Below, in pieces: positions 9,588 through 44,573 of a stretch of 64,000 nt of DNA (the stretch's first letter is position 1; every line of letters begins with the position of its first letter). The notes under the pieces were generated by a model. The model was given only the letters and a program-made list of their open reading frames with translations. It was not told the origin of the DNA and made no database searches. The stretch covers positions 36,653 through 100,652 of the forward strand of contig CAZBLT010000003.1 of the NCBI GenBank assembly GCA_964492745.1, read 5' to 3'. A program made the position numbers and the translations under genes. The stretch comes from an uncultured Anaerolineaceae bacterium. GTDB taxonomy: Bacteria; Chloroflexota; Anaerolineae; Anaerolineales; E44-bin32.

Positions 9588-12086
9588 CTAGCCGGCAGGC
9601 ATGGCTTCGGCGGGTTCCTCCTCACCTTCCATTTCGCCCATCGCCTGCCGCAGCACGATTTGCTCGCCTTCGACGTCCACGAGAATGGTGTCCCCCTGCT
9701 TGAACTCGCCGGACAGCAGTGCGTCTGATAGGCGGTCCTCGACCTCGCTCTGGATGACCCTCCGCAGAGGCCGGGCGCCCATCTCGGGATCGTAGCCCAT
9801 GTCCGCAAGCAGCGTGCGGGCTACGCCGGTTGCCTGGAGCGTAATCTCATGTTCCTCGAGGCGCCTGGAGACCTTCCGCAGCTCGAGATCGACAATCTGA
9901 CGGATCTGCTCCTTATTCAGGGCGTGGAAGACCATGATGGAGTCAACCCGGTTGATGAACTCTGGCCGGAAGACCTTCTTCAAGGCCTCCATCAGCTTCT
10001 TGCGCATCTCCTCGTACTCGAGCCGCTCCTCGATCTGCTCATCCCGCGGCAGGTCGAAACCAAGCTGGGATTGGCGGCGGATCATGTCGGCGCCGACGTT
10101 GGAGGTCATCACAATGATCGTGTTGCGGAAATCGACTTTCCGTCCCCGGGCATCCGAGAGGTGCCCCTCCTCCATGATTTGCAGCAGCATATTGTGCGCT
10201 TCGGGATGCGCCTTTTCGACTTCGTCGAAGACCACAATCGAGTAAGGGCGGCGGCGGATGGCTTCGGTCAGTTGACCGGCATCCTCGTAGCCAACGTAGC
10301 CTGGCGGCGCCCCCACAAGTCGGCTGACGGTGTGTCGCTCCATCAGCTCCGACATGTCGATTTGCACTAGCGCCTCCTCAGAGCCGAAGAGAAACTCGGC
10401 CAGCGCCTTGGTCAATTCCGTCTTGCCCACGCCCGTCGGCCCCAGGAAGATGAACGATCCGATGGGCCGCTTGGGATCCTTCAATCCTGCGCGGGAGCGG
10501 CGCACCGCCTTGGCAATTGCATCGATGGCTTCGTCCTGGCCGACGATGCGTTCGTGCAGTGCCTCTTCCATCTTCAGGAGACGTTCTGACTCGGCCTGCG
10601 CCAGTTGCATCACTGGCACGCCGGTCCACATCGAGACCACTTCGGCGATGTCCTCCTGCGTCACCTTCGGGCCGCTCTCGCTGCGATCCCAAGCGCTCCG
10701 CAGTCGCTCGAGCTGTTCTTCCAGCTCCGCTTCGCGGGCCGCCAATTGCTCGGCATCGTCGTGACGGTCCTCCTCGATCGCCAGAGCATGCGCCTCGCGG
10801 ACTTCTCGCAGTTCCCGGATCACTTCCCGCAAGCTCACCGCCTCCGGACTCTTGTACATGCGCACCCGCGAGGCCGATTCGTCGATCAGATCGATGGCCT
10901 TGTCCGGGAGATAACGGTCGGTGACATAGCGGGCCGACAGATGCGCGGCCGATTCAATGGCTTCATCCGTGATGTGCAGCTTGTGATGCTCTTCGTAGGG
11001 CCTGCGAACGCCGCGCAGGATGTCGATCGTTTCCTCGATCGTCGGCTCTTCAACCATTACCGGCTGGAACCGGCGTTCCAAGGCGGCATCGTTTTCGATG
11101 TACTTCCGGTACTCGTCCAGCGTGGTCGCGCCGATGACCTGCAGCTCTCCCCGCGACAGTGCCGGCTTGAGGATGTTAGCGGCGTCCACAGACGAGCCCG
11201 CCGAGCCCGCACCCACAAGCATGTGCACTTCGTCGATGAAAAGAATGGCCTCGGAGGATTTCAGCTCGTCGATCACGCGCTTCAAGCGTTCCTCGAATTG
11301 ACCGCGATACATCGTCCCCGCCACCAAAGAGCCCACATCCAATTGCAGAACGCGTTTGCCGATCAACGGGCCAGGCGTCTCGCCTGCCACAATCCGCTGC
11401 GCCAGGCCTTCCACGATGGCCGTTTTTCCGACCCCTGGCTCGCCGATCAAGGCTGGATTGTTCTTCGTGCGGCGCGCGAGGATCTGGATCACACGCTCGA
11501 TCTCCATCTCCCGCCCGATCACCGGATCGAGCTTGCCCTCTTCGGCCAGCAGCGTCAGATCAGTGGCCAACTGGTCCACCAGAGGCGTCTTGGGTTGTTC
11601 CTTGCGTTTAGCAGCTGCGGAGTGCTGCGTCATGCGCCGGGTGGGACTCTCCTGAAGCACGCGGCGGGTCTGCCTGCGGATCTGCTCGGGAGTGATGCCC
11701 AACCGGCGGAGTACATCGATCCCCACGCCTTCGCCCTGGCGCACCAGGCCCAGCAGCAGGTGTTCCGTGCCGATGTAGTGGTGGCCCATGCGGCGGGCCT
11801 CTTCGATTGCAGTCTGTAGGACTTGCTCCGTCGCTGGGGCGAGCTCGATGCGCCCGCCCGTATGCCGCCCGACGCCCGTCAGGCGTTCGACCATCTCCTT
11901 GACCCGGGCCGGCTCCAGGCCCAGCTCACGCAACACCCTGCCGGCAACCCCGCCTTCCTCGCGCATTAGGCCGAGCAACAAATGCTCGGTCCCGATATAG
12001 TTATGATGTAGCCTCTCCGCTTCCTCATGCGCTAGGCTCAAGACTCGCCTTGCTCGCTGTGTGAAGCGCTCCATCTTATCCGCCAC
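9588..12086 (-). CDS. clpC: ATP-dependent Clp protease ATP-binding subunit ClpC
   Basis: Two Clp_N repeats ([11 protein letters not shown], twice) and two AAA+ modules ([15 protein letters not shown] and [14 protein letters not shown]) joined by a short UVR-type linker. GTG 12086 has GGAGGGT 5 nt upstream. Confidence 0.95.
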
Positions 12087-12227: not shown

Positions 12228-13805
12228 TCAGGAGTTCTCCTGTCCTCCTTCTTCGGGAGGTGTCTCCGCAAGACTCTCGGGAGGGTCAGGCTCCGGCGGC
12301 AGTTCTGCCTCCGGAGGAGCGTCCACCTCGGAGGCGCCTCCCCTCTCCTCTTCGGCTTCCGCCTCTTCGACCGGGCTCTCCACCGCCATGGCTTCGGCTT
12401 GTGCTACCGGAGGCTCGGCCTCCGCCTCGGCCGACTCGGGCTGCTCCTCTACTGAGGCCTCTGGCTCGGACTCGGTAATTTCCTCCGCCGGAAGCTCCGC
12501 TTCGGGAGCCACATCCTCGGCCACCTCCTCCAGTGCGGCATCGAAGTCTTCCACTTCGTCGGTGGCTTTTAACGCCACGCCTTCCACACCTTCCCGTTCG
12601 AGCTCCGCCGCAGCCGATTGCCAATCCACGTCGGCGTACTCAGGCGAGTCGACCCGTTTCAGGCTGAGGCCAATGCGCCGGCGTTCCCGGTCGATCTTGA
12701 TGAGGCGCATGGCGACATCCTGTCCCTCATGCACCACCTCGCGCGGATGCTCAATGCGGCTATCGGAGAGCTCAGAGATGTGAATCAAGCCCTCAATCTC
12801 ATATTCCCCGGTACCCTTCAAGGCTGCGAAGGCGCCAAACTTAGTCAACTTGGTGATCGTGCCCTCCACCAATTGGCCTTCCTGCAACCCATCTACAATC
12901 TCGTCCCATGGATCGGGCTCAAGCTCACGCAAGGAAAGGCTGATGCGCTTGCGCTCCGGGTCCACGCCCAAGATCTTGACCTGGACCTGCTGCCCCACTT
13001 TGAGGATATCGCGGGGGTTTTCGACCCGCTTCCAGGACAACTCGGAGACGTGTACCAAACCGTCCGCGCCGCCGATATCCACGAAGGCGCCGAAATCTGC
13101 GAGGCTGATGACGGTGCCGGTGCGCACCTCGCCGAGCTCGAGCTCGGCAATCAGGCGTTCCTTGAGTGCGTCGCGCGACTCCCGCGCCGCCGCCCGCTCG
13201 GAAAGGATCAGGCGGTTGCGCCGGCGGTCGACCTCGATCACGCGAGCGATGATCGGCTCCCCGACCATTTCGCCCCAGCGCTGGTCCGGCGTTTCGCCCT
13301 CAGCGCGCCGCCGTCGCGATAGGCTCACTTGGGAGGCAGGGATAAAGCCACGCAGCCGCCCCAGCTTCACGATCAGGCCGCCCTTGTTATAGCCAGAGAT
13401 CGTGCCTTCGTAGGCTTCCCGGCTTTCGAGCAGCCGTTCGGCCTCGCGCCAATCCTGCTCCTCCTCGGCCCGGTTAATCGAGAGCACGATGGTCCCGTCC
13501 CGCCCCCCGGACCGCACGACGTAGACCTCGATCTCCTTGCCGACCTCCAGGTCCGCCCGCAGTTCTTCCGGCAATTGCTCCACCTCGCGCGTCGGGATTA
13601 CGCCCTCCGATTTGGCGCCGATGTCGACCAGGATGTCACTGTCTGTAATTCTGGCGATGGTTCCGGTGCGAATATCCCCGCGTCGAGGGGTCTCCAGCTC
13701 GTAGGCCTCGCCCTCGAGCAATGCATCCATCGGGTGCTCGCTCGCCTTTTGGGCCTCCGCTTCGATAAACGTCTCTTCCCCGATGGTGTTCTCGTTGGAC
13801 TCCAT
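12228..13805 (-). CDS. rpsA: 30S ribosomal protein S1 with a long acidic C-terminal tail
   Basis: Repeated S1 domains (G.I..I...G.FV.. patterns) followed by about 110 aa of E/A/P-rich tail. ATG 13805 (MESNEN) has GGGAG upstream. Confidence 0.9.
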   Translation of the reverse strand: MESNENTIGEETFIEAEAQKASEHPMDALLEGEAYELETPRRGDIRTGTIARITDSDILVDIGAKSEGVIPTREVEQLPEELRADLEVGKEIEVYVVRSGGRDGTIVLSINRAEEEQDWREAERLLESREAYEGTISGYNKGGLIVKLGRLRGFIPASQVSLSRRRRAEGETPDQRWGEMVGEPIIARVIEVDRRRNRLILSERAAARESRDALKERLIAELELGEVRTGTVISLADFGAFVDIGGADGLVHVSELSWKRVENPRDILKVGQQVQVKILGVDPERKRISLSLRELEPDPWDEIVDGLQEGQLVEGTITKLTKFGAFAALKGTGEYEIEGLIHISELSDSRIEHPREVVHEGQDVAMRLIKIDRERRRIGLSLKRVDSPEYADVDWQSAAAELEREGVEGVALKATDEVEDFDAALEEVAEDVAPEAELPAEEITESEPEASVEEQPESAEAEAEPPVAQAEAMAVESPVEEAEAEEERGGASEVDAPPEAELPPEPDPPESLAETPPEEGGQENS

Positions 13806-13840
13806 GAATCTCTTGTTCTCCCTTGGTTGGCGTAGCACGC

Positions 13841-14010: not shown

Positions 14011-15123
14011 ATGGCAGCCATCTACCCTTTCACCGCCATCGTTGGCCAGAACCGTATGCGCCGGGCGCTCATCCTCAACGCCGTCAACCCCCGCATCGGC
14101 GGTGTGCTGATCCGCGGCGAACGGGGTACCGCCAAATCGACCGCGGCGCGCGCCCTGGCCGCGCTTTTGCCGGAAGTCGAAGTCGTCGCCGATTGCCGCT
14201 TTGGGTGCGACCCGCATGACCCGCCCACATGGTGTACCGAATGCCGGGAGCGTGTGGCGCGCGGCGAGATTCTCCCCGTCGAGACTCGCAAGACTTCCTT
14301 CGTGGACTTGCCCGTCTCCGCCACCGAGGATCGGGTGGTCGGCACGCTGGATATCGAACGCGCCATCAAAGAGGGTGAGCGCCACTTCGAGCCCGGCGTG
14401 CTTGCAGCCGCCAACCGCGGCCTGCTCTATATCGACGAGGTCAACCTCCTGGACGACCATGTCGTCGATCTGTTGCTGGACTCGGCCGCCCTAGGCATGA
14501 ACATCGTCGAGCGTGAGGGTATCTCCTTCAGCCACCCGGCCCGCTACATCCTGGTCGGCACGATGAACCCCGAGGAGGGCGATCTGCGCCCCCAACTGCT
14601 CGACCGCTTCGCCCTCTCGGTCGAGATCCACGGGCTTCAGGACCCGCGTGACCGCGTCGCCATCATGGAACGCAACCTGGCCTTCGAGGCCGATCCCGAA
14701 GGTTTCCGTGCTGCTTGGATGGATAAGGAGCGCAACCTCTCCGAGGAGATCGAACGTGCCCGCGAGCTGGTGGATCAGGTGGGATACACGAAGCGCGATC
14801 TGCTCGCCATCGCGGCCTTGACCGCCTCGCTGCAGGTGGACGGCCACCGCGCCGACCTTGTCATCCTCAAGGCAGCCCGCGCGCATGCCGCCTTCGAGGG
14901 GCGTGACCGCATCACGGATCGCGATATCGCCATGGCCGCGGAGCTGGCCCTGCCTCACCGCCTGCGCCGGGGACCCTTCCAGCAAGTCGAAGTGAGCATC
15001 GAGGAGCTCCAATCCCGTCTGGAGCAAATTCAGCACGACGTCGGCCAGTCCGGCGAAGAATTGGAACCTCAGGCCGGCGAGCAGGAACCCGAATCTAAAA
15101 AAAAAGACCTAAGGCCGGCCTAG
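14011..15123 (+). CDS. ChlI/BchI-like AAA+ ATPase (magnesium-chelatase-type motor subunit)
   Basis: Walker A GERGTAKS, Walker B LLYIDEVNLL, and the VGTMNPEEGDLRPQLLDRF sensor/arginine-finger region. The acidic tail ends in an A9 run. AAGGA SD precedes ATG 14011. Confidence 0.85.
   Translation: MAAIYPFTAIVGQNRMRRALILNAVNPRIGGVLIRGERGTAKSTAARALAALLPEVEVVADCRFGCDPHDPPTWCTECRERVARGEILPVETRKTSFVDLPVSATEDRVVGTLDIERAIKEGERHFEPGVLAAANRGLLYIDEVNLLDDHVVDLLLDSAALGMNIVEREGISFSHPARYILVGTMNPEEGDLRPQLLDRFALSVEIHGLQDPRDRVAIMERNLAFEADPEGFRAAWMDKERNLSEEIERARELVDQVGYTKRDLLAIAALTASLQVDGHRADLVILKAARAHAAFEGRDRITDRDIAMAAELALPHRLRRGPFQQVEVSIEELQSRLEQIQHDVGQSGEELEPQAGEQEPESKKKDLRPA
15097..15105 (+). promoter_or_regulatory. 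A9 homopolymer / A_AAA_AAA slippery heptamer at the ChlI-like / VWA junction
   Basis: Zero-frame codons are TCT AAA AAA AAA GAC. The -1 frame is open from 15099 to 16097 with no start codon before 15249. Confidence 0.6.
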
Positions 15124-15248
15124 CCGAGGAAGAGGCCGAGGCCGCAGAGAAGAAGCAAGAGGCGGAGCCCATCCGCCGCCCGGCGCCGGATTCGCTCAGC
15201 GCCCGTTGGTGGGAGGGTGGGGAGAAGGTCAAGATCGGGCCCGCGTTC

Positions 15249-16097
15249 GTGCCTCGCCGCCTGGAGGGCAAGATCGACCGTCTTCTCCGCCGTCAGGGCG
15301 GCCGCCGCACGCGCACGCGCACCGACCGCAAGCGCGGCCGCTATATCCAGGCCCGTCCGGCTGGAGACTGCCTGGATGACATCGCCTTCGATGCCACCTT
15401 GCGCGCCGCTGCGCCTTACCAGCGCGACCGGCAGGCGCAGCGCAAGAAAGTTGCCTTCGCGATCCAGCCCTCCGATCTGCGGCGCAAGGTCCGAGTCCGC
15501 AAGGCCGCCAACCTCATCCTGTTCGTAGTCGATGCTAGTTGGTCGATGGCGGTGGCGGAACGCATGGCCGCCACCAAAGGGGCCATCTTCTCCCTGCTCA
15601 CCGATGCCTACCAGCGGCGCGACCGCGTGGGGCTAATCGTCTTCCAGAAGGACCGGGCGATGACAATCCTCCCGCCGACCAATTCGGTGCAATTGGCCCG
15701 GCGGGCGCTGGCTGACATCCCAGTGGGCGGCAAGACGCCTCTCTCCGCCGGATTGAACCTGGCCCTGGAGGTCTTCCGCAAGGAACGCATTCTACACCCC
15801 GATGTGCTCCCGCTCATGATCCTGCTCACGGATGGGGCCGGCAACGTCTCCATGGGGGATTTACCACCCCAGGAGGAGGCTCATCGGGTGGCAGATCGCA
15901 TCCGGCAAGCTGGCATTCGCTCTGTAGTGGTCAATATGGAGCACGCCGCTTTCGACCAGGGACTGGCCCAGGCCCTGGCTGAACGTCTGGATGGTCCTTG
16001 CTACACCCTGCACGAACTCAAGGCTGAGCACCTCTACCAGGCCGTCCGTCAGGAGCTGGAGGTGGGGGCGCCCCCTGGCAATCGGACATCCGCCTAG
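15249..16097 (+). CDS. VWA domain protein (ChlD/BchD C-terminal-half-like); may really begin by -1 frameshift at 15105
   Basis: MIDAS motif VVDASWSM and a VWA fold pattern (GGKTPLSAGL, LLTDGAGN). The only start candidate is GTG 15249, which lacks a well-spaced SD. The frame stays open for 50 codons upstream. Confidence 0.8.
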   Translation: MPRRLEGKIDRLLRRQGGRRTRTRTDRKRGRYIQARPAGDCLDDIAFDATLRAAAPYQRDRQAQRKKVAFAIQPSDLRRKVRVRKAANLILFVVDASWSMAVAERMAATKGAIFSLLTDAYQRRDRVGLIVFQKDRAMTILPPTNSVQLARRALADIPVGGKTPLSAGLNLALEVFRKERILHPDVLPLMILLTDGAGNVSMGDLPPQEEAHRVADRIRQAGIRSVVVNMEHAAFDQGLAQALAERLDGPCYTLHELKAEHLYQAVRQELEVGAPPGNRTSA

Positions 16098-18628: not shown

Positions 18629-18661
18629 CCATCCCGTCCCCCCCCCGGCACGCTTCGAAAC

Positions 18662-20554
18662 CTAATCCCGGATCGCCGGCAAGACGACAGTGAAGGTGGT
18701 TCCTTCGCCCAAACGAGAGTCCACCCAGATGCGGCCGTTGTGTTGCTCGACGATCGACTTGACGATCGAGAGGCCCAATCCCGTCCCCGGCGCATCATTG
18801 GGGATATTGCTGGCCCGGAAGAACTTGTCGAAGAGGTAGGGCTGGTCGGCCGGCGGGATGCCGGGGCCGGTATCCCGCACCTGCAGGATGACCTGATCGC
18901 CCTCTGCGCCCGCCTCCAGGCAGACCCGCCCGCCCGTTGGCGTATACTTAATGGCGTTTTCGAGAAGATTGCCGATCATCTGCCGCAATCGCAGTGGGTC
19001 GCCATGCACATGCGGCAAGCCGTTCTCGATTTTGGCCTCCAGCTCCAGGCCCTTGGCATCGGCGAGAGCGCGAATGCTCTCAACGGCATAGCTGGCCAGC
19101 GTCGCAAGCGGCGTATCCTCCTTGGTGGTATCCAGCCCAGCTTCGATTCGGCCCAGATCCAGCAAATCGGTCACCAGCGCGGTGATCTGTTCCACGCTTA
19201 TGCGCACACGTGAAAGGAACTGGGCCTGCGCCTCCGTCAGCGGCCCGGCGCGCTCGATCAACTCTGTGTATCCCAGAATGGCGGTGAGCGGTGAGCGCAG
19301 GTCATGCGAAACCGTGGTAACGAATTCGGACTTGATGCGGTCGAGCTCTTTCAAGTGTGTGATGTCATGCAGGATCACCGCATGCCCCACACCATGGATT
19401 GGGCTACGAACCGCCGCCAGCACTCTGCCGTCCTCCAGCTCAATATCGTCCCGCCTTGTCGAGCCGCCGGGTGCTCTCAGCAATTCCAGCAACGCGGCAT
19501 GATCGAAGACTTCCGCTGCCGAGCAGCCCAAGAAGTTCCCCTGCAGGTCGAAGATCTCCTGGGCCGCGCGGTTGGCCAACAGAAGGCGGTTCTCCTCGTC
19601 TACGACGATCACGCCATTTTGGCTTTGGGCCAATATGGTTTCGAGTTTGGCCCGCTCGTCCTCTGACTCCTGGTACAAGCGGGCATTCTCCACCGCGATG
19701 GCGGCGTAGTCGGCCATCGCCATCAATAGGGTCACGTCCTCCCGAGTCAAGAGTTTTCCGGCCTTGCGGTTATCCACTCCAAGCACCCCAATCGTCTTTC
19801 CCCGTACCTGCAGCGGCACATAAATCAGGGAGTGGACCAGATAGGCGGTCTTGATCTTCTGAGGCGACGTCTCGTCGAGCAGAATCGGCTCGCCCTTTTC
19901 GAGCACCTGGCCTGCCAACGAATCCTGAACCTGCAGCCGGAAGGTGTGCGCGAAATCTTCGTCAAAATTCTTGGAGGCCCGCATGTAGAGCTCGCCGCTG
20001 GCCTCGTCCACCAGCAAGAGGCTCCCTTCTTCCGCTCCGGTGAGCCGCACCGCGGCTTCCACGACGGTTGTGAGCACCACATCCAGGTCCAACACCGCGG
20101 TCACGGTACGGCCGATCATGGCCAGTGTCTCGAGTTCCTGGACGCGTCGGGCTAGTGTGCCTTCCTCCGTTCCCCTGCCCTCGCTCCTGGCCTCCAGCGC
20201 CCTCCGCACCGCTTGAAGCAGCTCATCCGAGGCGAATGGCTTCACCAGGAAATCACAGGCACCGGCGCGCAGCGCGGCTAAGATCAACTTATCGGAGCTC
20301 TCGCTGCTCATTAGAATGACCGGAATGCCGGGGAGGGCGGTTCGGAGGCGCCGGATAAGATCAAGGCCCGACAGACCAGGCATCTGTTGATCGGTGATCA
20401 CCAAGTCGGGCTTCAAGTCCTGGGCCAACGCTAAGGCCGACATCCCATCACCGACACGGCGAACCTGATAGCCAGCAGGCCGGAGAATCCTCTCCTCTAC
20501 AATCTGTGCGATGTCTCGATTATCTTCGGCGACGAGAATCAGCTTAGCGCTCAT
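18662..20554 (-). CDS. Hybrid sensor: receiver-GAF-PAS-histidine kinase (HisKA + HATPase_c)
   Basis: N-terminal REC (LILVAEDN...DLVITDQQMPGLSG), a GAF region, H-box SHDLRSPLT, an N-box, and G-box GTGLGLSIVK. Start placed at ATG 20554. Confidence 0.9.
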   Translation of the reverse strand: MSAKLILVAEDNRDIAQIVEERILRPAGYQVRRVGDGMSALALAQDLKPDLVITDQQMPGLSGLDLIRRLRTALPGIPVILMSSESSDKLILAALRAGACDFLVKPFASDELLQAVRRALEARSEGRGTEEGTLARRVQELETLAMIGRTVTAVLDLDVVLTTVVEAAVRLTGAEEGSLLLVDEASGELYMRASKNFDEDFAHTFRLQVQDSLAGQVLEKGEPILLDETSPQKIKTAYLVHSLIYVPLQVRGKTIGVLGVDNRKAGKLLTREDVTLLMAMADYAAIAVENARLYQESEDERAKLETILAQSQNGVIVVDEENRLLLANRAAQEIFDLQGNFLGCSAAEVFDHAALLELLRAPGGSTRRDDIELEDGRVLAAVRSPIHGVGHAVILHDITHLKELDRIKSEFVTTVSHDLRSPLTAILGYTELIERAGPLTEAQAQFLSRVRISVEQITALVTDLLDLGRIEAGLDTTKEDTPLATLASYAVESIRALADAKGLELEAKIENGLPHVHGDPLRLRQMIGNLLENAIKYTPTGGRVCLEAGAEGDQVILQVRDTGPGIPPADQPYLFDKFFRASNIPNDAPGTGLGLSIVKSIVEQHNGRIWVDSRLGEGTTFTVVLPAIRD

Positions 20555-20620
20555 GTGCAATCACCAGATGATCCCATGGGGGTTGGACAATCTTTGGATG
20601 GCTGGGCAGTCGGGGGAGGA

Positions 20621-22916: not shown

Positions 22917-24122
22917 ATGAAGAAATGGCCTCTAGTTTCGGTTGCTGCCGCTCTCTCCCTCGCCGCCATTGCCTGCAGCCTGCAGCCCATCCCGGTCGAG
23001 AGTCCGACCCCGACGCGCTCCCCGGTCCCCCCCCTTCCCACAGCCGCACCGCCGGTTAGCCCTCCACCCTCCACTTCCGCAGCGGGAGGGGGGCTTCCCG
23101 TGGCCGGCGATTTGGTCGCACTCTACGAACGCGTCAGCCCAGGCGTGGTCACCATCTGGACCTTTGAGGAGCTCGGCGCCCCCCACGAGGCAAGTGTGCC
23201 CAGCGGACAGGGATCGGGCTTCGTGATCGACATACAAGGGCATATCGTCACCAACCAACATGTGGTCAACGGCGCCAGCGAGATCGAGGTGGATTTCCCC
23301 TCCGGGATCAAGGCCTGGGCCCGATTGCTCGGCACCGATCCGGATTCCGATCTGGCCGTCCTCGAAGTGGATGTCCCTGAGGAGACCCTGGTACCCCTAT
23401 CGTTGGGCGATTCGGACCAGGTGAGAGTGGGGCAATTTGTGGTGGCCATCGGCAATCCCTTCGGCCTTACCGGAACCATGACCGTGGGCGTGGTCTCTGC
23501 GATTGGCAGGACGCTGGAGTCGGAGCGGCTGGCGCCCGGCGGGACGCCCTTCTCCGCTGGCGATCTGATCCAGACGGACGCTGCCATCAATCCAGGAAAT
23601 TCCGGCGGGCCCCTCCTGAACCTGAGCGGCCAGGTCATCGGCATCAATCGCGCCATCCAGACCGAGATATTCACGGTCGAGGGCAGCGCCGCCAATTCTG
23701 GTGTAGGCTTCGCAGTTCCAGTGAATCTCCTCCGCCGGGTAGCGCCCAGCCTTATCGCAAGCGGCAGCTATGATTATCCCTACCTGGGCATCTCAAGCCT
23801 GGATGACGACCTATGGAACCTGAAGACTATCGAGGCGCTGGGGCTCCCGCCAAATGCGCTCGGGGCCTATGTGACTGAGGTGGTTCCTGGCGGCCCGGCC
23901 GACCAAGCCGGACTGCGCGGGGGTCGCCGCGAGACCGCCATTCCGGGTCTCCTCGCCGGCGGCGACCTCATCATCGCCATCGACGACCAGCCCGTAAAGA
24001 AATTCGCCGATTTGCTGTCCTTCCTCTTTAAGTACACCGAACCTGGCCAGCAAGTCGTCCTCACCGTGATCCGCGAGAATGAGGAGGTGGACATACCCCT
24101 GATGATCGGTGCTCGCCCCTGA
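22917..24122 (+). CDS. htrA: HtrA/DegP-family serine protease with one PDZ domain, predicted lipoprotein
   Basis: Signal peptide with lipobox (LAAIAC). Catalytic triad contexts are TNQHVV, DSDLAVLEV and GNSGGPLLN. C-terminal PDZ. Start moved to ATG 22917. Confidence 0.9.
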   Translation: MKKWPLVSVAAALSLAAIACSLQPIPVESPTPTRSPVPPLPTAAPPVSPPPSTSAAGGGLPVAGDLVALYERVSPGVVTIWTFEELGAPHEASVPSGQGSGFVIDIQGHIVTNQHVVNGASEIEVDFPSGIKAWARLLGTDPDSDLAVLEVDVPEETLVPLSLGDSDQVRVGQFVVAIGNPFGLTGTMTVGVVSAIGRTLESERLAPGGTPFSAGDLIQTDAAINPGNSGGPLLNLSGQVIGINRAIQTEIFTVEGSAANSGVGFAVPVNLLRRVAPSLIASGSYDYPYLGISSLDDDLWNLKTIEALGLPPNALGAYVTEVVPGGPADQAGLRGGRRETAIPGLLAGGDLIIAIDDQPVKKFADLLSFLFKYTEPGQQVVLTVIRENEEVDIPLMIGARP

Positions 24123-32660: not shown

Positions 32661-32805
32661 GTCCACCCTTCGGTATCCCCTGGCTCGGAGTAGCGATCTC
32701 CCCTTGTAGCCACCCCTCCTAATTGTCCCGAAGTCTAACACGAGTATCCCATCCGAAGGGGTCTTGCGCCCAACTCCGTCGCTGGCTGTACAATCATGGA
32801 CAGCG

Positions 32806-35193
32806 ATGGGCTCAACCCATTCCCTCCCTCGAGATCGAACTGTTGTGGGGCTTGCGCTGGTATCCGCGGCCAGCCTCGCCTATGAGGTTACCCTCACTCG
32901 CCTCTTCGCCATCCAGCAATTCCATCATTTTGCCTTTCTGGTTGTGAGCATGGCAGTGATGGGGTTTGCCGCCAGCGGCCTTGCTCTCTCGATTCGGCCA
33001 CATGGCCCGAAGCCCTGGAATCTGGCGCTGGCCTTCAGCTTCAGCGCCCTTGCTGCCTACACCGTTCTGCTCTACCTGCCCTTCGATTCGTACAGCGTTG
33101 CCTGGGACCGCCGGCAAGTGGTTATCCTGGGAATGTACTTTCTGACAGCGGGCGCCCCCTTTCTGTTCGCAGGATGGACCGCCGCGGCGGCGATGGCCGC
33201 GGCCGGGGAGAGGCTTCATCAACCCTATGCAGCCAATCTGATGGGTGCTGCTCTGGGTGGACCGCTGGCCCTTCTCGCCATGCAGATCCGAAGCGGTGAG
33301 GCGGCCTTTGGCCTGTCCATCGCCCTGGGCTTGGCAGGCACCGCGGCCTTTCTGCCGAGATCTCGCGCCCGTCTTGCGCATCTCGCTGGCGGCCTCATCC
33401 TGCTCACCTGCTTCGCCTTGCCTCTCAGGCCTCTCCAGTTCCGCCTCTCCCCTTACAAACCGCTGGAGATCGCCCACCTCGCACTCGGCGCCCGCCATAC
33501 CTTCACACGCTGGAGCGCCTCGACGCGGGTCGACGTCCTTGAGGGCCCCAGCATTCATATCTTCCCGGGCCTCAGCCTGCAGACGGGTTTGGAGCTGCCC
33601 GAACAGGCCGGGCTCTTTGTTGACGGCGACGGACCACTGCCCATAACCCGCGCGGCCCCCGAAGATCCCCGTACGGCTACATTAGCCGCGGCCATGCCGC
33701 CTCACATCGCCTACCAGCTCCGCCCCAACGGCCGGGCATTGATCCTCGATGCCGGAGCTGGGTTGGCCCCTTTGCTGGCGCTGACGAACCCGGGAATCGA
33801 GGTGCATCTTCCCGTGGAAGATCCCCTGATCCTGCACGTTCTTAAGGACCCTTATGCATCCTTCAGCGAAGATCTCGCCACCCACCCAAGGCTTCACTGG
33901 ATCCCGCGAGCCGCACGTGGCGTCTTGGCGCAGGCAGGAGAGCCATACCACCTGATTGAGTTTGCACTTAGCGATAGCTTCCGCCCGATTACTTCTGGCG
34001 CGTTCAGCCTGTCCGAGGACTATTTGCTGACCGTGGAAGCCTTCCAGGCAGCATGGCGGAGGCTCGATCCGGATGGGCTGTTGGTGATGACTCGCTGGAT
34101 CGGAACCCCTCCCAGCGAATCGGCCCGCGCCTGGGTCACGCTGATGACCGCCTTGCGGGCCGAGGGCATCGCAGAGTTTGAGGAGCATCTGATCGCCTTC
34201 AGGGGCATGCGGACAGTTACTATCCTGGCCGCGCGCCAGCCCTTCAATGATCAGGAGCTTGCGAGCGTGCGCGCCTTTCTTAGATCCGGCGGCTATGACG
34301 CGCTTGCATTGCCCGGCCTCCAGCCAGATGAAGTCAACCGCTTCAACATTCTCCCCGAGCCTGTCTACCACCGGCTATTCATGGCTCTGCTCGAGGATCC
34401 CGAGGCCACCATCACCGCCTATCCCTTCGACCTGCGTCCACCGTCTGATCTCCGGCCCTACTTCTTCCACTTTTTCCGCTGGGGCCAAACCCGCGAACTC
34501 CTTGCCCAACTCGGCACCCGGTGGCAGCCCTTCGGCGGCAGCGGATACCTGGTTCTCTTGGCATTGCTAGCGCTCATGGTCCTGGCAGCCGTTCCGATGG
34601 TCCTCATCCCCGCCGTGCTCCGCCGTCGCCGCGAGAGGCTGAGCCCTCCAGGCGTCATGCCTTTACTCTACTTCGCCGGGCTCGGCGCGGGATATTTGCT
34701 GATTGAGATTCCGCTCATCCAGATATCGACCCTGATTCTCGATCGCCCAGCCCTAGCCCTGGCCAACGTGCTCGTGGCGTTGCTGCTGGCCTCCGGCCTC
34801 GGCAGCCTGCTCTCCCCCCGCATCCGCCTTCAAAGGGCGCTTCCCTGTCTCTGCCTGCTCCTGTTTTCGACCATCGTGGCGGCAGGGCCGCTCAGCCGCG
34901 CTGTCCTCCCGGCCAGCCTGCCGGTTCGGTGGCTGCTCACATTCGCATGGATCTTGCCATTGGGTGTCCTGATGGGGATCCCCTTTGCGGCGGGTCTGCG
35001 AAAGCTGGAGGCCACCTCGCCCGGGTGGATCCCTTGGGCCTGGGCCATCAACGGATCCCTGTCGGGCATCAGTGGGGTGATCGCGGCGATTCTCGCAATA
35101 GCTTGGGGGTTCCGGGCAACGCTTGTCGCGGGCCTGGCAGCCTACCTACTGGCCTGGCTTTCTTCCGGCTTTCTACCTCACGCCCGGCATTGA
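32806..35193 (+). CDS. Polytopic membrane protein with a central spermidine-synthase-like (SAM-MTase fold) domain
   Basis: N- and C-terminal TM bundles (LAYEVTLTRLFAIQQFHHFAFLVVS). The central region ALILDAGAGLAP...LIEFALSDSF...LLTVEAFQAAWRRLDPDGLLVM resembles SpeE-like domains. Confidence 0.65.
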   Translation: MGSTHSLPRDRTVVGLALVSAASLAYEVTLTRLFAIQQFHHFAFLVVSMAVMGFAASGLALSIRPHGPKPWNLALAFSFSALAAYTVLLYLPFDSYSVAWDRRQVVILGMYFLTAGAPFLFAGWTAAAAMAAAGERLHQPYAANLMGAALGGPLALLAMQIRSGEAAFGLSIALGLAGTAAFLPRSRARLAHLAGGLILLTCFALPLRPLQFRLSPYKPLEIAHLALGARHTFTRWSASTRVDVLEGPSIHIFPGLSLQTGLELPEQAGLFVDGDGPLPITRAAPEDPRTATLAAAMPPHIAYQLRPNGRALILDAGAGLAPLLALTNPGIEVHLPVEDPLILHVLKDPYASFSEDLATHPRLHWIPRAARGVLAQAGEPYHLIEFALSDSFRPITSGAFSLSEDYLLTVEAFQAAWRRLDPDGLLVMTRWIGTPPSESARAWVTLMTALRAEGIAEFEEHLIAFRGMRTVTILAARQPFNDQELASVRAFLRSGGYDALALPGLQPDEVNRFNILPEPVYHRLFMALLEDPEATITAYPFDLRPPSDLRPYFFHFFRWGQTRELLAQLGTRWQPFGGSGYLVLLALLALMVLAAVPMVLIPAVLRRRRERLSPPGVMPLLYFAGLGAGYLLIEIPLIQISTLILDRPALALANVLVALLLASGLGSLLSPRIRLQRALPCLCLLLFSTIVAAGPLSRAVLPASLPVRWLLTFAWILPLGVLMGIPFAAGLRKLEATSPGWIPWAWAINGSLSGISGVIAAILAIAWGFRATLVAGLAAYLLAWLSSGFLPHARH

Positions 35194-43494: not shown

Positions 43495-44573
43495 AAGCAC
43501 TCTATATTACCTCTATCGAGCCACACGCCGGCAAAACTGCCGTCTGTCTTGCCCTGGGATGCCAATTCCAGGAAGACGGCTACTCGGTGGGATACCTCAA
43601 ACCCGTGAGCACTCAACCTTGGCGCACAGAGGACGGCCGGCTCGCTGATGAGGACGCCTTCTTCGTGCATACCTCGCTGGGCCTTCCGGGAGATCCCATC
43701 GAGGCCGCGCCCGTGATTGTGACCCGCCAGGCCCTCCGTAGCCGCCTGAAGGGCGATGGCGAGGAAGACCTGATGGCGAGGATCGAGGCCGCCGCCGCAA
43801 AGGCCGGGGAGGGCAAGGATGTGCTCTTGCTCGAGGGCGGGGCCAGCCTCCGCGAGGGCTATGCCATGGGCCTATCCAATCTGCAGGTCGCAGGCGAACT
43901 TGGAGCCCCTGCCATCGTGATCGTGCCCTACCGGGGCGAGATGTGCTTGGTGGACGACGCGCTCACCGCCCGCTTCCGCCTCGGCGACCAACTCATGGGC
44001 ATCCTCATTAACCGCGTTCCCGCAGAGGATGGCGAGTTCATCCAGGAGTACGCCAGGCCCTATCTCGAGGCCAAGGGCATCCCTGTCTTGGGAACCCTTC
44101 CCAGCATGCCGCGCCTCTCCGCGCTCAGTGTCGGGGAATTGGCCGAACTGCTCGATGCCGAGGTGCTCACAAAGAACATGGACTCTGATGCGTTGGCGGA
44201 GACGCTCACCGTGGGGGCCATGACCGCCGAGGCGGCCCTCAAGCGCTTCCGCCGCTACCAAAAAAAGGCCGTCATCACCGGCGGCGACCGCACTGACATC
44301 CAGCTTGCTGCCCTCGAAACTTCCACTGTGGTTCTGATCCTGACCGGCAATCTGCGCCCCAGTCCGCTCATCATAAAACAAGCCGAAGCCCTGAACGTTC
44401 CCATCCTGTTGGTCAAGGACAACACGATGGAGACTGTGAACCGCATCGAACAGGCCCATGGCAAGACCCGCCTGGGTCAACCCGAAAAGCTGGAGACTTT
44501 CATTCGATTGGTGAAGGAAAACGTCCGGCTTGAGGTAATCTACAAGGCTCTGGGGCTCGAGCCACGCAGTTGA
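43491..44573 (+). CDS. Stand-alone phosphotransacetylase N-terminal-like protein (BioD-like P-loop + DRTGG domain), no PTA catalytic domain
   Basis: MKALYITSIEPHAGKTAVCLAL P-loop and a GGDRTDIQLAAL DRTGG-type region. Its ATG overlaps the upstream stop (ATGA at 43491-43494). Confidence 0.75.
   Translation: MKALYITSIEPHAGKTAVCLALGCQFQEDGYSVGYLKPVSTQPWRTEDGRLADEDAFFVHTSLGLPGDPIEAAPVIVTRQALRSRLKGDGEEDLMARIEAAAAKAGEGKDVLLLEGGASLREGYAMGLSNLQVAGELGAPAIVIVPYRGEMCLVDDALTARFRLGDQLMGILINRVPAEDGEFIQEYARPYLEAKGIPVLGTLPSMPRLSALSVGELAELLDAEVLTKNMDSDALAETLTVGAMTAEAALKRFRRYQKKAVITGGDRTDIQLAALETSTVVLILTGNLRPSPLIIKQAEALNVPILLVKDNTMETVNRIEQAHGKTRLGQPEKLETFIRLVKENVRLEVIYKALGLEPRS

Follow-up and report, generated by a model that had tools for sequence, protein, structure and literature searches.

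A chlD-like gene divided by a run of nine A residues in an uncultured Anaerolineales bacterium: probable -1 slippage to ChlI-like and ChlD-like products

The locus described here lies in a stretch of 64,000 nucleotides (referred to below as the window) from an uncultured Anaerolineaceae bacterium, taken from contig CAZBLT010000003.1 of the assembly GCA_964492745.1 (positions 36,653 to 100,652 of the forward strand). An open reading frame (ORF) for a ChlI-like AAA+ ATPase, referred to as ORF1, is followed in the -1 frame by a reading frame for a VWA domain. The two overlap at a run of nine consecutive A residues (A9), and it is this junction, which resembles those of the fs-chlD recoding family, that forms the subject of the analysis. 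Numbered from the first letter of the window, the locus contains the following features.

14011..15123, plus strand: ORF1, zero frame, giving the short product, a 370-amino-acid ChlI-like AAA+ ATPase that ends ...EPESKKKDLRPA before the stop codon.
15083..15086, plus strand: AGGA, a tetramer resembling a Shine–Dalgarno (SD) sequence, 12 nt upstream of the slippery heptamer, a dnaX-like spacing.
15096..15098, plus strand: TAA of the -1 frame, which overlaps the start of the A9 run and bounds the -1 reading frame on its 5′ side.
15097..15105, plus strand: the A9 slippery run, in phase 0 (codons TCT AAA AAA AAA GAC).
15099..15248, plus strand: the start-less -1 segment, with an acidic linker and a conserved ARWWEGGxKV motif (WWEGG at 15207-15221).
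15105..16097, plus strand: the -1-frame coding part of the predicted long product, with the linker, the AAPxQ motif region and the VWA domain.

ORF1 matches the Pfam families AAA_lid_2, Mg_chelatase and AAA_5. Its Walker A motif is GERGTAKS (14116-14139), with Ala where the second canonical Gly is expected. This Ala is nearly invariant across 16 aligned sequences, Gly being found in one of them only (P0005), and the same Ala-for-Gly variant of Walker A is known from the MCM proteins. The Walker B motif (LLYIDE) is intact, with its DE at 14434-14439. The ORF closes at TAG 15121-15123, 16 nt past the A9 run. Within the run, the heptamer A_AAA_AAA is found in phase at 15099-15105. As the TAA at 15096-15098 bounds the -1 frame, a shift into that frame must fall inside the run. 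In a window with a G+C content of 62.4%, no A/T homopolymer is longer than A9, and the sole other A/T run of at least seven is an A7 at 44260; the A9 run exceeds chance expectation.

The -1 frame is open from 15099 to TAG 16095-16097, a total of 333 codons, and matches the Pfam families VWA and VWA_2. The VWA domain carries the metal ion-dependent adhesion site (MIDAS) motif DASWS at 15531-15545. The earliest ATG, GTG or TTG in this frame is GTG 15249 (codon 414 of the fused product), which is where the program-made ORF listing begins it, and a search of the sequence before this codon for a GGAGG-type motif at normal spacing gave none. The start-less segment 15099-15248 is, on its sequence, predicted to be expressible only as a continuation of ORF1. 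The long product predicted from the two frames has 695 amino acids with the junction ...EPESKKK/RPKAGLAEEE..., and its trans-frame junction peptide is predicted as ESKKKRPKAGLAEEE / ...EPESKKKRPKAGLAEEEAEAAEK. A preliminary description, made from the letters of the window, had already given the ORF1 coordinates, the Walker motifs, the position of the A9 run, the -1 TAA, the open frame and the want of both an earlier start codon and a well-spaced SD sequence at GTG 15249; all of these hold on re-reading.

Comparison with protein family models indicates that both halves belong to one chain. The model TIGR02442 (“putative cobaltochelatase”, 641 positions) aligns with ORF1 at model positions 1-354, and its positions 363-640 align with the -1 frame, starting at residue 20 of the start-less stretch and thus upstream of GTG 15249. 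The fused 695-residue product covers model positions 1-640 and scores 788.9 bits, above the cut-off of 779.45, while the single halves remain under it (515.3 bits for ORF1 and 264.8 bits for the -1 part). ORF1 aligns over its full length with the solved ChlI/BchI structures 8osf, 6l8d and 1g8p (E 1e-92 to 1e-104), and the C-terminal VWA domain aligns with the BchD VWA structure 2x31 (E 1e-20). ORF1 itself falls under the cut-off of the BchI/ChlI equivalog TIGR02030 (426.2 vs 466.95 bits). A protein-database search found fused homologues of 680-690 amino acids with 64-80% identity. When the predicted fused product is aligned with 15 full-length relatives, residues W400, W401, G403, G404 and F413 are invariant in the 16 sequences. 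Their codons lie between the zero-frame stop and GTG 15249, and this stretch is therefore a conserved coding segment without a start codon of its own. The AAA+ and VWA halves very probably constitute one gene of the fs-chlD type for a ChlD-like medium chelatase subunit. The BchD/ChlD architecture proposed in the preliminary description is thereby upheld, as the fused product spans TIGR02442 from end to end and passes its cut-off.

The run and the frame were followed among relatives. A scan of species-representative genomes gave 80 loci; with the addition of a metagenome scan and the removal of duplicates, 109 distinct loci of at least 59% identity were obtained (individual loci are numbered with the prefix L). 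The 38 closest species-representative loci (73-84% identity in the AAA+ half) are all from metagenome-assembled genomes (MAGs) of Anaerolineales/Chloroflexota. The VWA half lies in the -1 frame in 37 of these and in the +1 frame in one. Over all 109 distinct loci, 80 are at -1, with runs of A7-A10 at the matching point of the linker, 26 are in frame and three are at +1.

Every locus of at least 73% identity carries a junction A-run of seven or more, inside an otherwise hypervariable linker. The runs at this level of identity are mostly A9 or A10, with some A7 and single cases of A8, A11 and A12. In loci of the -1 type, the median distance from the run to the zero-frame stop is 5 nt. Only 51% of the Lys codons outside the run in these genes are AAA (49% are AAG), and codon usage therefore cannot account for the A-run. 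In 37 of 75 loci at -1, the interval from the stop upstream in the VWA frame to the WWEGG motif contains no ATG, GTG or TTG. On these comparisons, the position, the direction and the motif of the putative frameshift site are conserved among orthologues, as under purifying selection.

It is also notable that a T directly precedes the A9 run on its 5′ side in all 18 distinct phase-0 loci at -1 (e.g., L016, L019, L022 and L102-L116; position 15096 in the window). This T is found despite eight different preceding triplets and a frequency of third-position T of just 18% in these genes. It creates the -1-frame TAA at the start of the run and is present in seven of eight in-frame phase-0 A9 loci as well.

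This arrangement is not new to science. The locus belongs to the published fs-chlD recoding family, which has been known since 2013 (PMC3711429, PMC5009743, PMC9227772). Antonov et al. (2013) reported a cluster of 23 genes for magnesium chelatase that have a -1 frameshift, found in Pseudomonas, Burkholderia, Delftia, Herpetosiphon, Methanocaldococcus and Methanococcus (PMC3711429). Cassettes of this family gave frameshifting in E. coli reporters of 63% for A11, 40% for A9 and 10% for A7 (PMC3711429). The chlD frameshift case was reviewed by Atkins et al. in 2016 (PMC5009743). Kuznetsov et al. (2022) listed fs-chlD genes in the Anaerolineae, namely in Anaerolinea thermophila, Ornatilinea, Longilinea, Levilinea and Brevefilum, and stated that some of these genomes are without a large subunit and without the chlorophyll and B12 pathways, the role of the I and D pair there being unknown (PMC9227772).

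The locus shares with this family a ChlI-like AAA+ ORF followed by a VWA ORF at -1, the conserved poly-A or A_AAA_AAR sequence at the overlap, two products from one gene (predicted in the present case), and its occurrence in Chloroflexi. Some of the family's genomes are without the large subunit or a tetrapyrrole pathway. The locus differs in that neither the locus nor 77 relatives have a detectable downstream structure, a feature that the papers describe as usual but not obligatory, and in that its host is an uncultured Anaerolineales lineage unnamed in those papers.

The nearest parallel outside the family is dnaX. The E. coli gene uses -1 programmed ribosomal frameshifting on A_AAA_AAG, and that of Thermus thermophilus uses transcriptional slippage on A9; a “reverse” organization, in which tau needs recoding, is also described (PMC3711429). 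In common with dnaX, the present genes would give short and long AAA+ forms with a shared ATPase module by way of an A-run, and both organizations are found among relatives, with the long form either in frame or needing the shift. The A9 run has the length of the Thermus slippage site, and the AGGA 12 nt upstream, a possible SD-like element, is placed as in E. coli dnaX. The two families are unrelated beyond the AAA+ fold (the dnaX model TIGR02397 against the locus gives E = 0.006). No stem-loop stimulator is found here, and the extra domain is VWA/MIDAS, whereas dnaX has tau domains IV-V.

The expression of the locus may be envisaged as follows. Standard decoding of 14011-15123 would give the 370-residue ChlI-like ATPase, with termination 16 nt past the A9 run. 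In a sizeable fraction of expression events, the frame would move by -1 within the run, either because the RNA polymerase adds one A (transcriptional slippage) or because the ribosome shifts by -1 on A_AAA_AAA at 15099-15105. Either route would lead to the same 695-residue protein, ...ESKKK-RPKAGLAEEE..., with an acidic and Pro-rich linker and the MIDAS-containing VWA domain. The short and long products would share the AAA+ module and would presumably co-assemble as a two-tier AAA+ motor, by analogy with BchI/BchD, in which case the ratio of I-like to D-like subunits would be set by the rate of slippage. In all likelihood, -1 slippage does allow the locus to yield two products, one short and I-like, the other long and D-like. 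This had been suggested from the window itself, and it gains support from the 80 of 109 relatives in the same state and from the published reporters for the family. Slippage in the host, its division between transcription and translation, and co-assembly of the products are what we infer from these lines of evidence.

Two patterns among the relatives suggest a ribosomal component. All seven distinct A7 variants at -1 are in phase 2, the sole phase with an in-phase A_AAA_AAA (X_XXY_YYZ), and in 17 of 17 A10 variants in phase 1 the next base is G, giving A_AAA_AAG, the heptamer of E. coli dnaX. For a transcriptional component, most loci hold nine or ten A residues though a ribosome would need seven, and the two “extra” residues are kept in all 18 distinct phase-0 A9 loci while the preceding codon varies. 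All three phases are used, there are three +1 loci, and no downstream structure is detectable; the match to the length of the Thermus dnaX site (cited in PMC3711429) also points this way. Transcriptional slippage is estimated to be the main contributor at A9 and A10 runs, with ribosomal -1 frameshifting adding to it and probably dominating in the A7 variants.

The three loci with the VWA half at +1 (L043, L130 and L137) have runs of A9, A12 and A10, respectively. These would need the loss of one A, the gain of two, or a +1 shift, and L043 resembles a long-read assembly in which an error is possible. If real, the three loci favor bidirectional transcriptional slippage.

The possibility of stimulatory elements around the run was considered on both sides. 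Downstream, the GC-rich pairing at about 15113-15145, including the GGCCGGCC stem, had been put forward as a stimulator. The segment 15106-15175 does fold at -23.8 kcal/mol; however, 19 of 200 dinucleotide shuffles were as stable (z = -1.28), so that the hairpin is not beyond chance. The 50 nt after the run in 77 distinct -1 loci likewise had no extra stability in comparison with other positions within each gene (a mean z of -0.11 and a median percentile of 0.49), and comparing 14900-15400 with Rfam gave no match at E up to 1. A downstream hairpin or pseudoknot stimulator is thus rejected, given a chance-level fold in the window and no excess across the 77 loci. Upstream, SD-like tetramers within 20 nt 5′ of the run are found in 45 of 77 loci, as against 26-28 of 77 in control windows of the linker, which is GAG/GGA-rich. 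The contrast with the whole-gene background (58% vs 14%) thus shrinks against acidic-linker windows. The AGGA at 15083-15086 is a possible, weakly supported candidate for a dnaX-type upstream stimulator.

The A-run is found beyond the loci that are split. In-frame relatives at 59-75% identity (Chloroflexaceae and basal Anaerolineae) mostly have A8-A10 at the same place, while distant relatives (Dehalococcoidia, archaea and Desulfobacterota) are without an A-run at the junction. On this distribution, the A-run is older than the frame split. In-frame loci that keep A8-A11 at the same position of the linker are L001, L004-L009, L013-L015 and L084-L101. In 22 of 22 distinct in-frame loci with at least A8, a stop closes the -1 frame no more than 45 nt past the run, compared with 34% of background positions. 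The in-frame genes may, through slippage, likewise yield a short form that is ChlI-like, and the in-frame and -1 chlD-like alleles then mirror the two known organizations of dnaX.

A neighbor-joining tree of the 109 loci, with parsimony, places the root in frame and requires at least eight changes of frame state. An in-frame A10 clade (L084-L088) is nested beside the window's own group. At a closer distance, L167 (A10, in frame) and L108/L109 (A9, -1; run near 2580) are 98.3% identical over 2049 nt. The sole gap between them is the run itself (L167:1591-1600), with a coverage of just 3.5x for L167. This suggests polymorphism of run length within one species-level lineage.

Several explanations dispense with recoding, and one is that the A9 is a miscalled A10 or A7 and that the gene is simply a chlD-like fusion in frame. 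Homopolymers are error-prone, true in-frame A10 alleles exist in close relatives (L084-L087, L167), and the best 120 protein-database matches are all fused, though the ranking favors full-length ORFs. The 370-residue ORF1 product is, however, found in identical form on six contigs, which calls for an unchanged frame at the run. Three of these contigs were compared with the window as DNA: a Logan assembly (SRR15988951), an ENA assembly (hydrothermal-vent run SRR3223410) and the NCBI MAG GCA_029934135.1. They align with it over some 4 kb without a gap and with 3-25 mismatches (99.3-99.9% identity), and all three have A9 in phase 0. As these assemblies are independent, come from three sources and assemblers, and have diverged by single-nucleotide polymorphisms, a miscall is rejected; the 80 distinct related loci that share the -1 arrangement also speak against one, which makes this explanation extremely unlikely. 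The preliminary description had regarded a miscall, or else a pseudogene, as the parsimonious view, and the A9 in three assemblies overturns it. A real inactivating frameshift, leaving a pseudogene or a gene of which only the ChlI-like half still functions, would fit with the inability of standard decoding to yield the long product and with a large subunit not being found nearby. A decaying half would be expected to gather stops and indels, yet tblastn in relatives recovers the whole VWA half in one frame. In the window, this half is intact and open for 333 codons, with strong conservation (MIDAS and many invariant columns), and the -1 arrangement is held across the whole clade at 73-85% protein identity. 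Inactivation is accordingly highly improbable.

Two further explanations accept the frame as it is. In one, there are two genes and an incidental A-run, and the VWA protein starts independently, either from GTG 15249 or, through termination-reinitiation, from a non-canonical codon. Gene callers do give a 282-residue ORF from GTG 15249, and initiation at the downstream ORF beside frameshifting has been described for some candidate clusters (PMC3711429). This would leave the conservation of the A-run across three phases unexplained, and neither the single-chain homology from residue 20 of the start-less stretch onward nor the invariant W400, W401, G403, G404 and F413 upstream of the GTG would be expected. 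Nor was an SD sequence found at proper spacing before that codon. With this upstream conservation, and with about half of the relatives (37 of 75) lacking any ATG, GTG or TTG in the equivalent interval, independent initiation of the VWA protein is rejected as quite unlikely. The other explanation is heritable phase variation, in which a DNA-level change between A9 and A10 gives subpopulations that are each limited to one protein, the short or the long. The A10 of L167 against the A9 of L108/L109, with the run as the only gap, and the eight or more frame-state changes on the tree are what would be anticipated. Against this, a cell with the A9 allele would have no VWA subunit, but most loci (80 of 109) are stably in the A9 state, which is also fixed in three diverged populations of the window's organism. 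The low coverage of L167 (3.5x) also counts against it. In-frame alleles keep the run with a -1 frame that closes promptly (22 of 22), which fits two products from either allele. Phase variation as the whole account is unlikely, and as a process it is compatible with recoding and not exclusive of it.

There are also points that weigh against the preferred reading of one recoded gene with two products. The margin of the fused product over the TIGR02442 cut-off is only 9 bits, and the product lies under that of the BchD/ChlD equivalog TIGR02031 (447.2 vs 499.55 bits). The case for slippage in this organism is drawn from comparative sequence and the literature, and the published efficiencies are those of other species' cassettes in E. 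coli. A downstream stimulatory structure was not detected, though fs-chlD signals “usually” have one (PMC9227772). The large subunit was not found in the 64-kb window, so that a chelatase role is putative. In-frame alleles occur in very close relatives (L084-L088, L167 and L168); therefore, the -1 arrangement is not obligatory, and change of run length at the DNA level also occurs.

These last alleles lend themselves to a more speculative extension of the recoding model. It is possible, though doubtful at this stage, that the A-run acts as a two-way heritable switch of subunit ratio, with both products made from either allele and a motor that is probably not a chelatase. From in-frame alleles, the long D-like form would predominate, and the short form would arise when a -1 slip leads into a frame closed within 45 nt; out-of-frame alleles would make mostly the short I-like form. 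A one-base change between A9 and A10, which has taken place in the clade at least eight times and, it seems, inside a single species, would then flip the stoichiometry of I-like to D-like subunits. The non-chelatase function follows in this proposal from a motor without a large chelatase subunit. Retention of the run in in-frame relatives, the eight or more toggles and the A9/A10 polymorphism are absent from PMC3711429, PMC5009743 and PMC9227772; Antonov 2020 was outside this comparison. The comparative details on the age and toggling of the run may be new, and part of them may be published already.

In terms of function, the comparison with BchI/BchD (ChlI/ChlD) provides both likenesses and differences. 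ORF1 resembles ChlI/BchI over its full length, the C-terminal VWA domain resembles the integrin-I-like domain of BchD in 2x31, and an acidic and Pro-rich linker lies between the AAA+ and VWA domains in both systems. The AAA+ module of classical BchD is degenerate. Here, in contrast, the AAA+ module of the predicted long form is identical to that of the short form and has the catalytic motifs. The scores for both equivalogs are below their cut-offs, the best fit being to TIGR02442, “putative cobaltochelatase”, and ChlH/CobN was not found in the window or in the flanks of the relatives examined here. The ORFs of the 64-kb window include no CobN/ChlH-type large subunit and no second ChlI, in agreement with what had been stated for the large subunit; those of at least 650 amino acids are a GAF histidine kinase, PriA, ClpB, ClpC, acetyl-CoA synthetase, aconitase and one without an assignment. 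No CobN/ChlH-type gene was found in the 6-kb flanks of the 38 relatives either. A two-tier AAA+/VWA motor formed from both products is, by analogy, the most reasonable reading.

The only conserved neighbors in the 38 relatives are a divergent S1-domain gene (24 of 38) and, further upstream, ClpC (12 of 38). Their counterparts in the window are on the minus strand, at 12228-13838 (an S1-domain protein with an acidic C-terminal tail) and 9588-12086 (ClpC). The gene neighborhood was dropped as a clue to function, as neither the S1-domain gene nor ClpC is informative.

These results add a large, well-sampled Anaerolineales clade to the fs-chlD family, in which the signal appears to be the homopolymer alone, with no detectable RNA structure. 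Such a clade is a good natural system in which to separate transcriptional from ribosomal slippage, and it is suited to the question of what sets the ratio of subunits in an AAA+/VWA motor. There is a consequence for annotation as well. Loci of this kind are routinely called as a “Mg chelatase ChlI” plus a truncated “VWA protein” from a spurious GTG, and fs-chlD loci merit annotation as one recoded gene with two products.

Some minor observations were made elsewhere in the window. At 32764-35193 (plus strand), an ORF of 809 amino acids with a TTG start gave no match to Pfam at E up to 1e-5, and it could be either a protein specific to the lineage or a long but spurious ORF in GC-rich DNA. Other long homopolymers in the window are a C8 at 23027-23034 and a C9 at 18638-18646, the latter located just past the 3′ end of a minus-strand response-regulator/histidine-kinase ORF (18662-20560).

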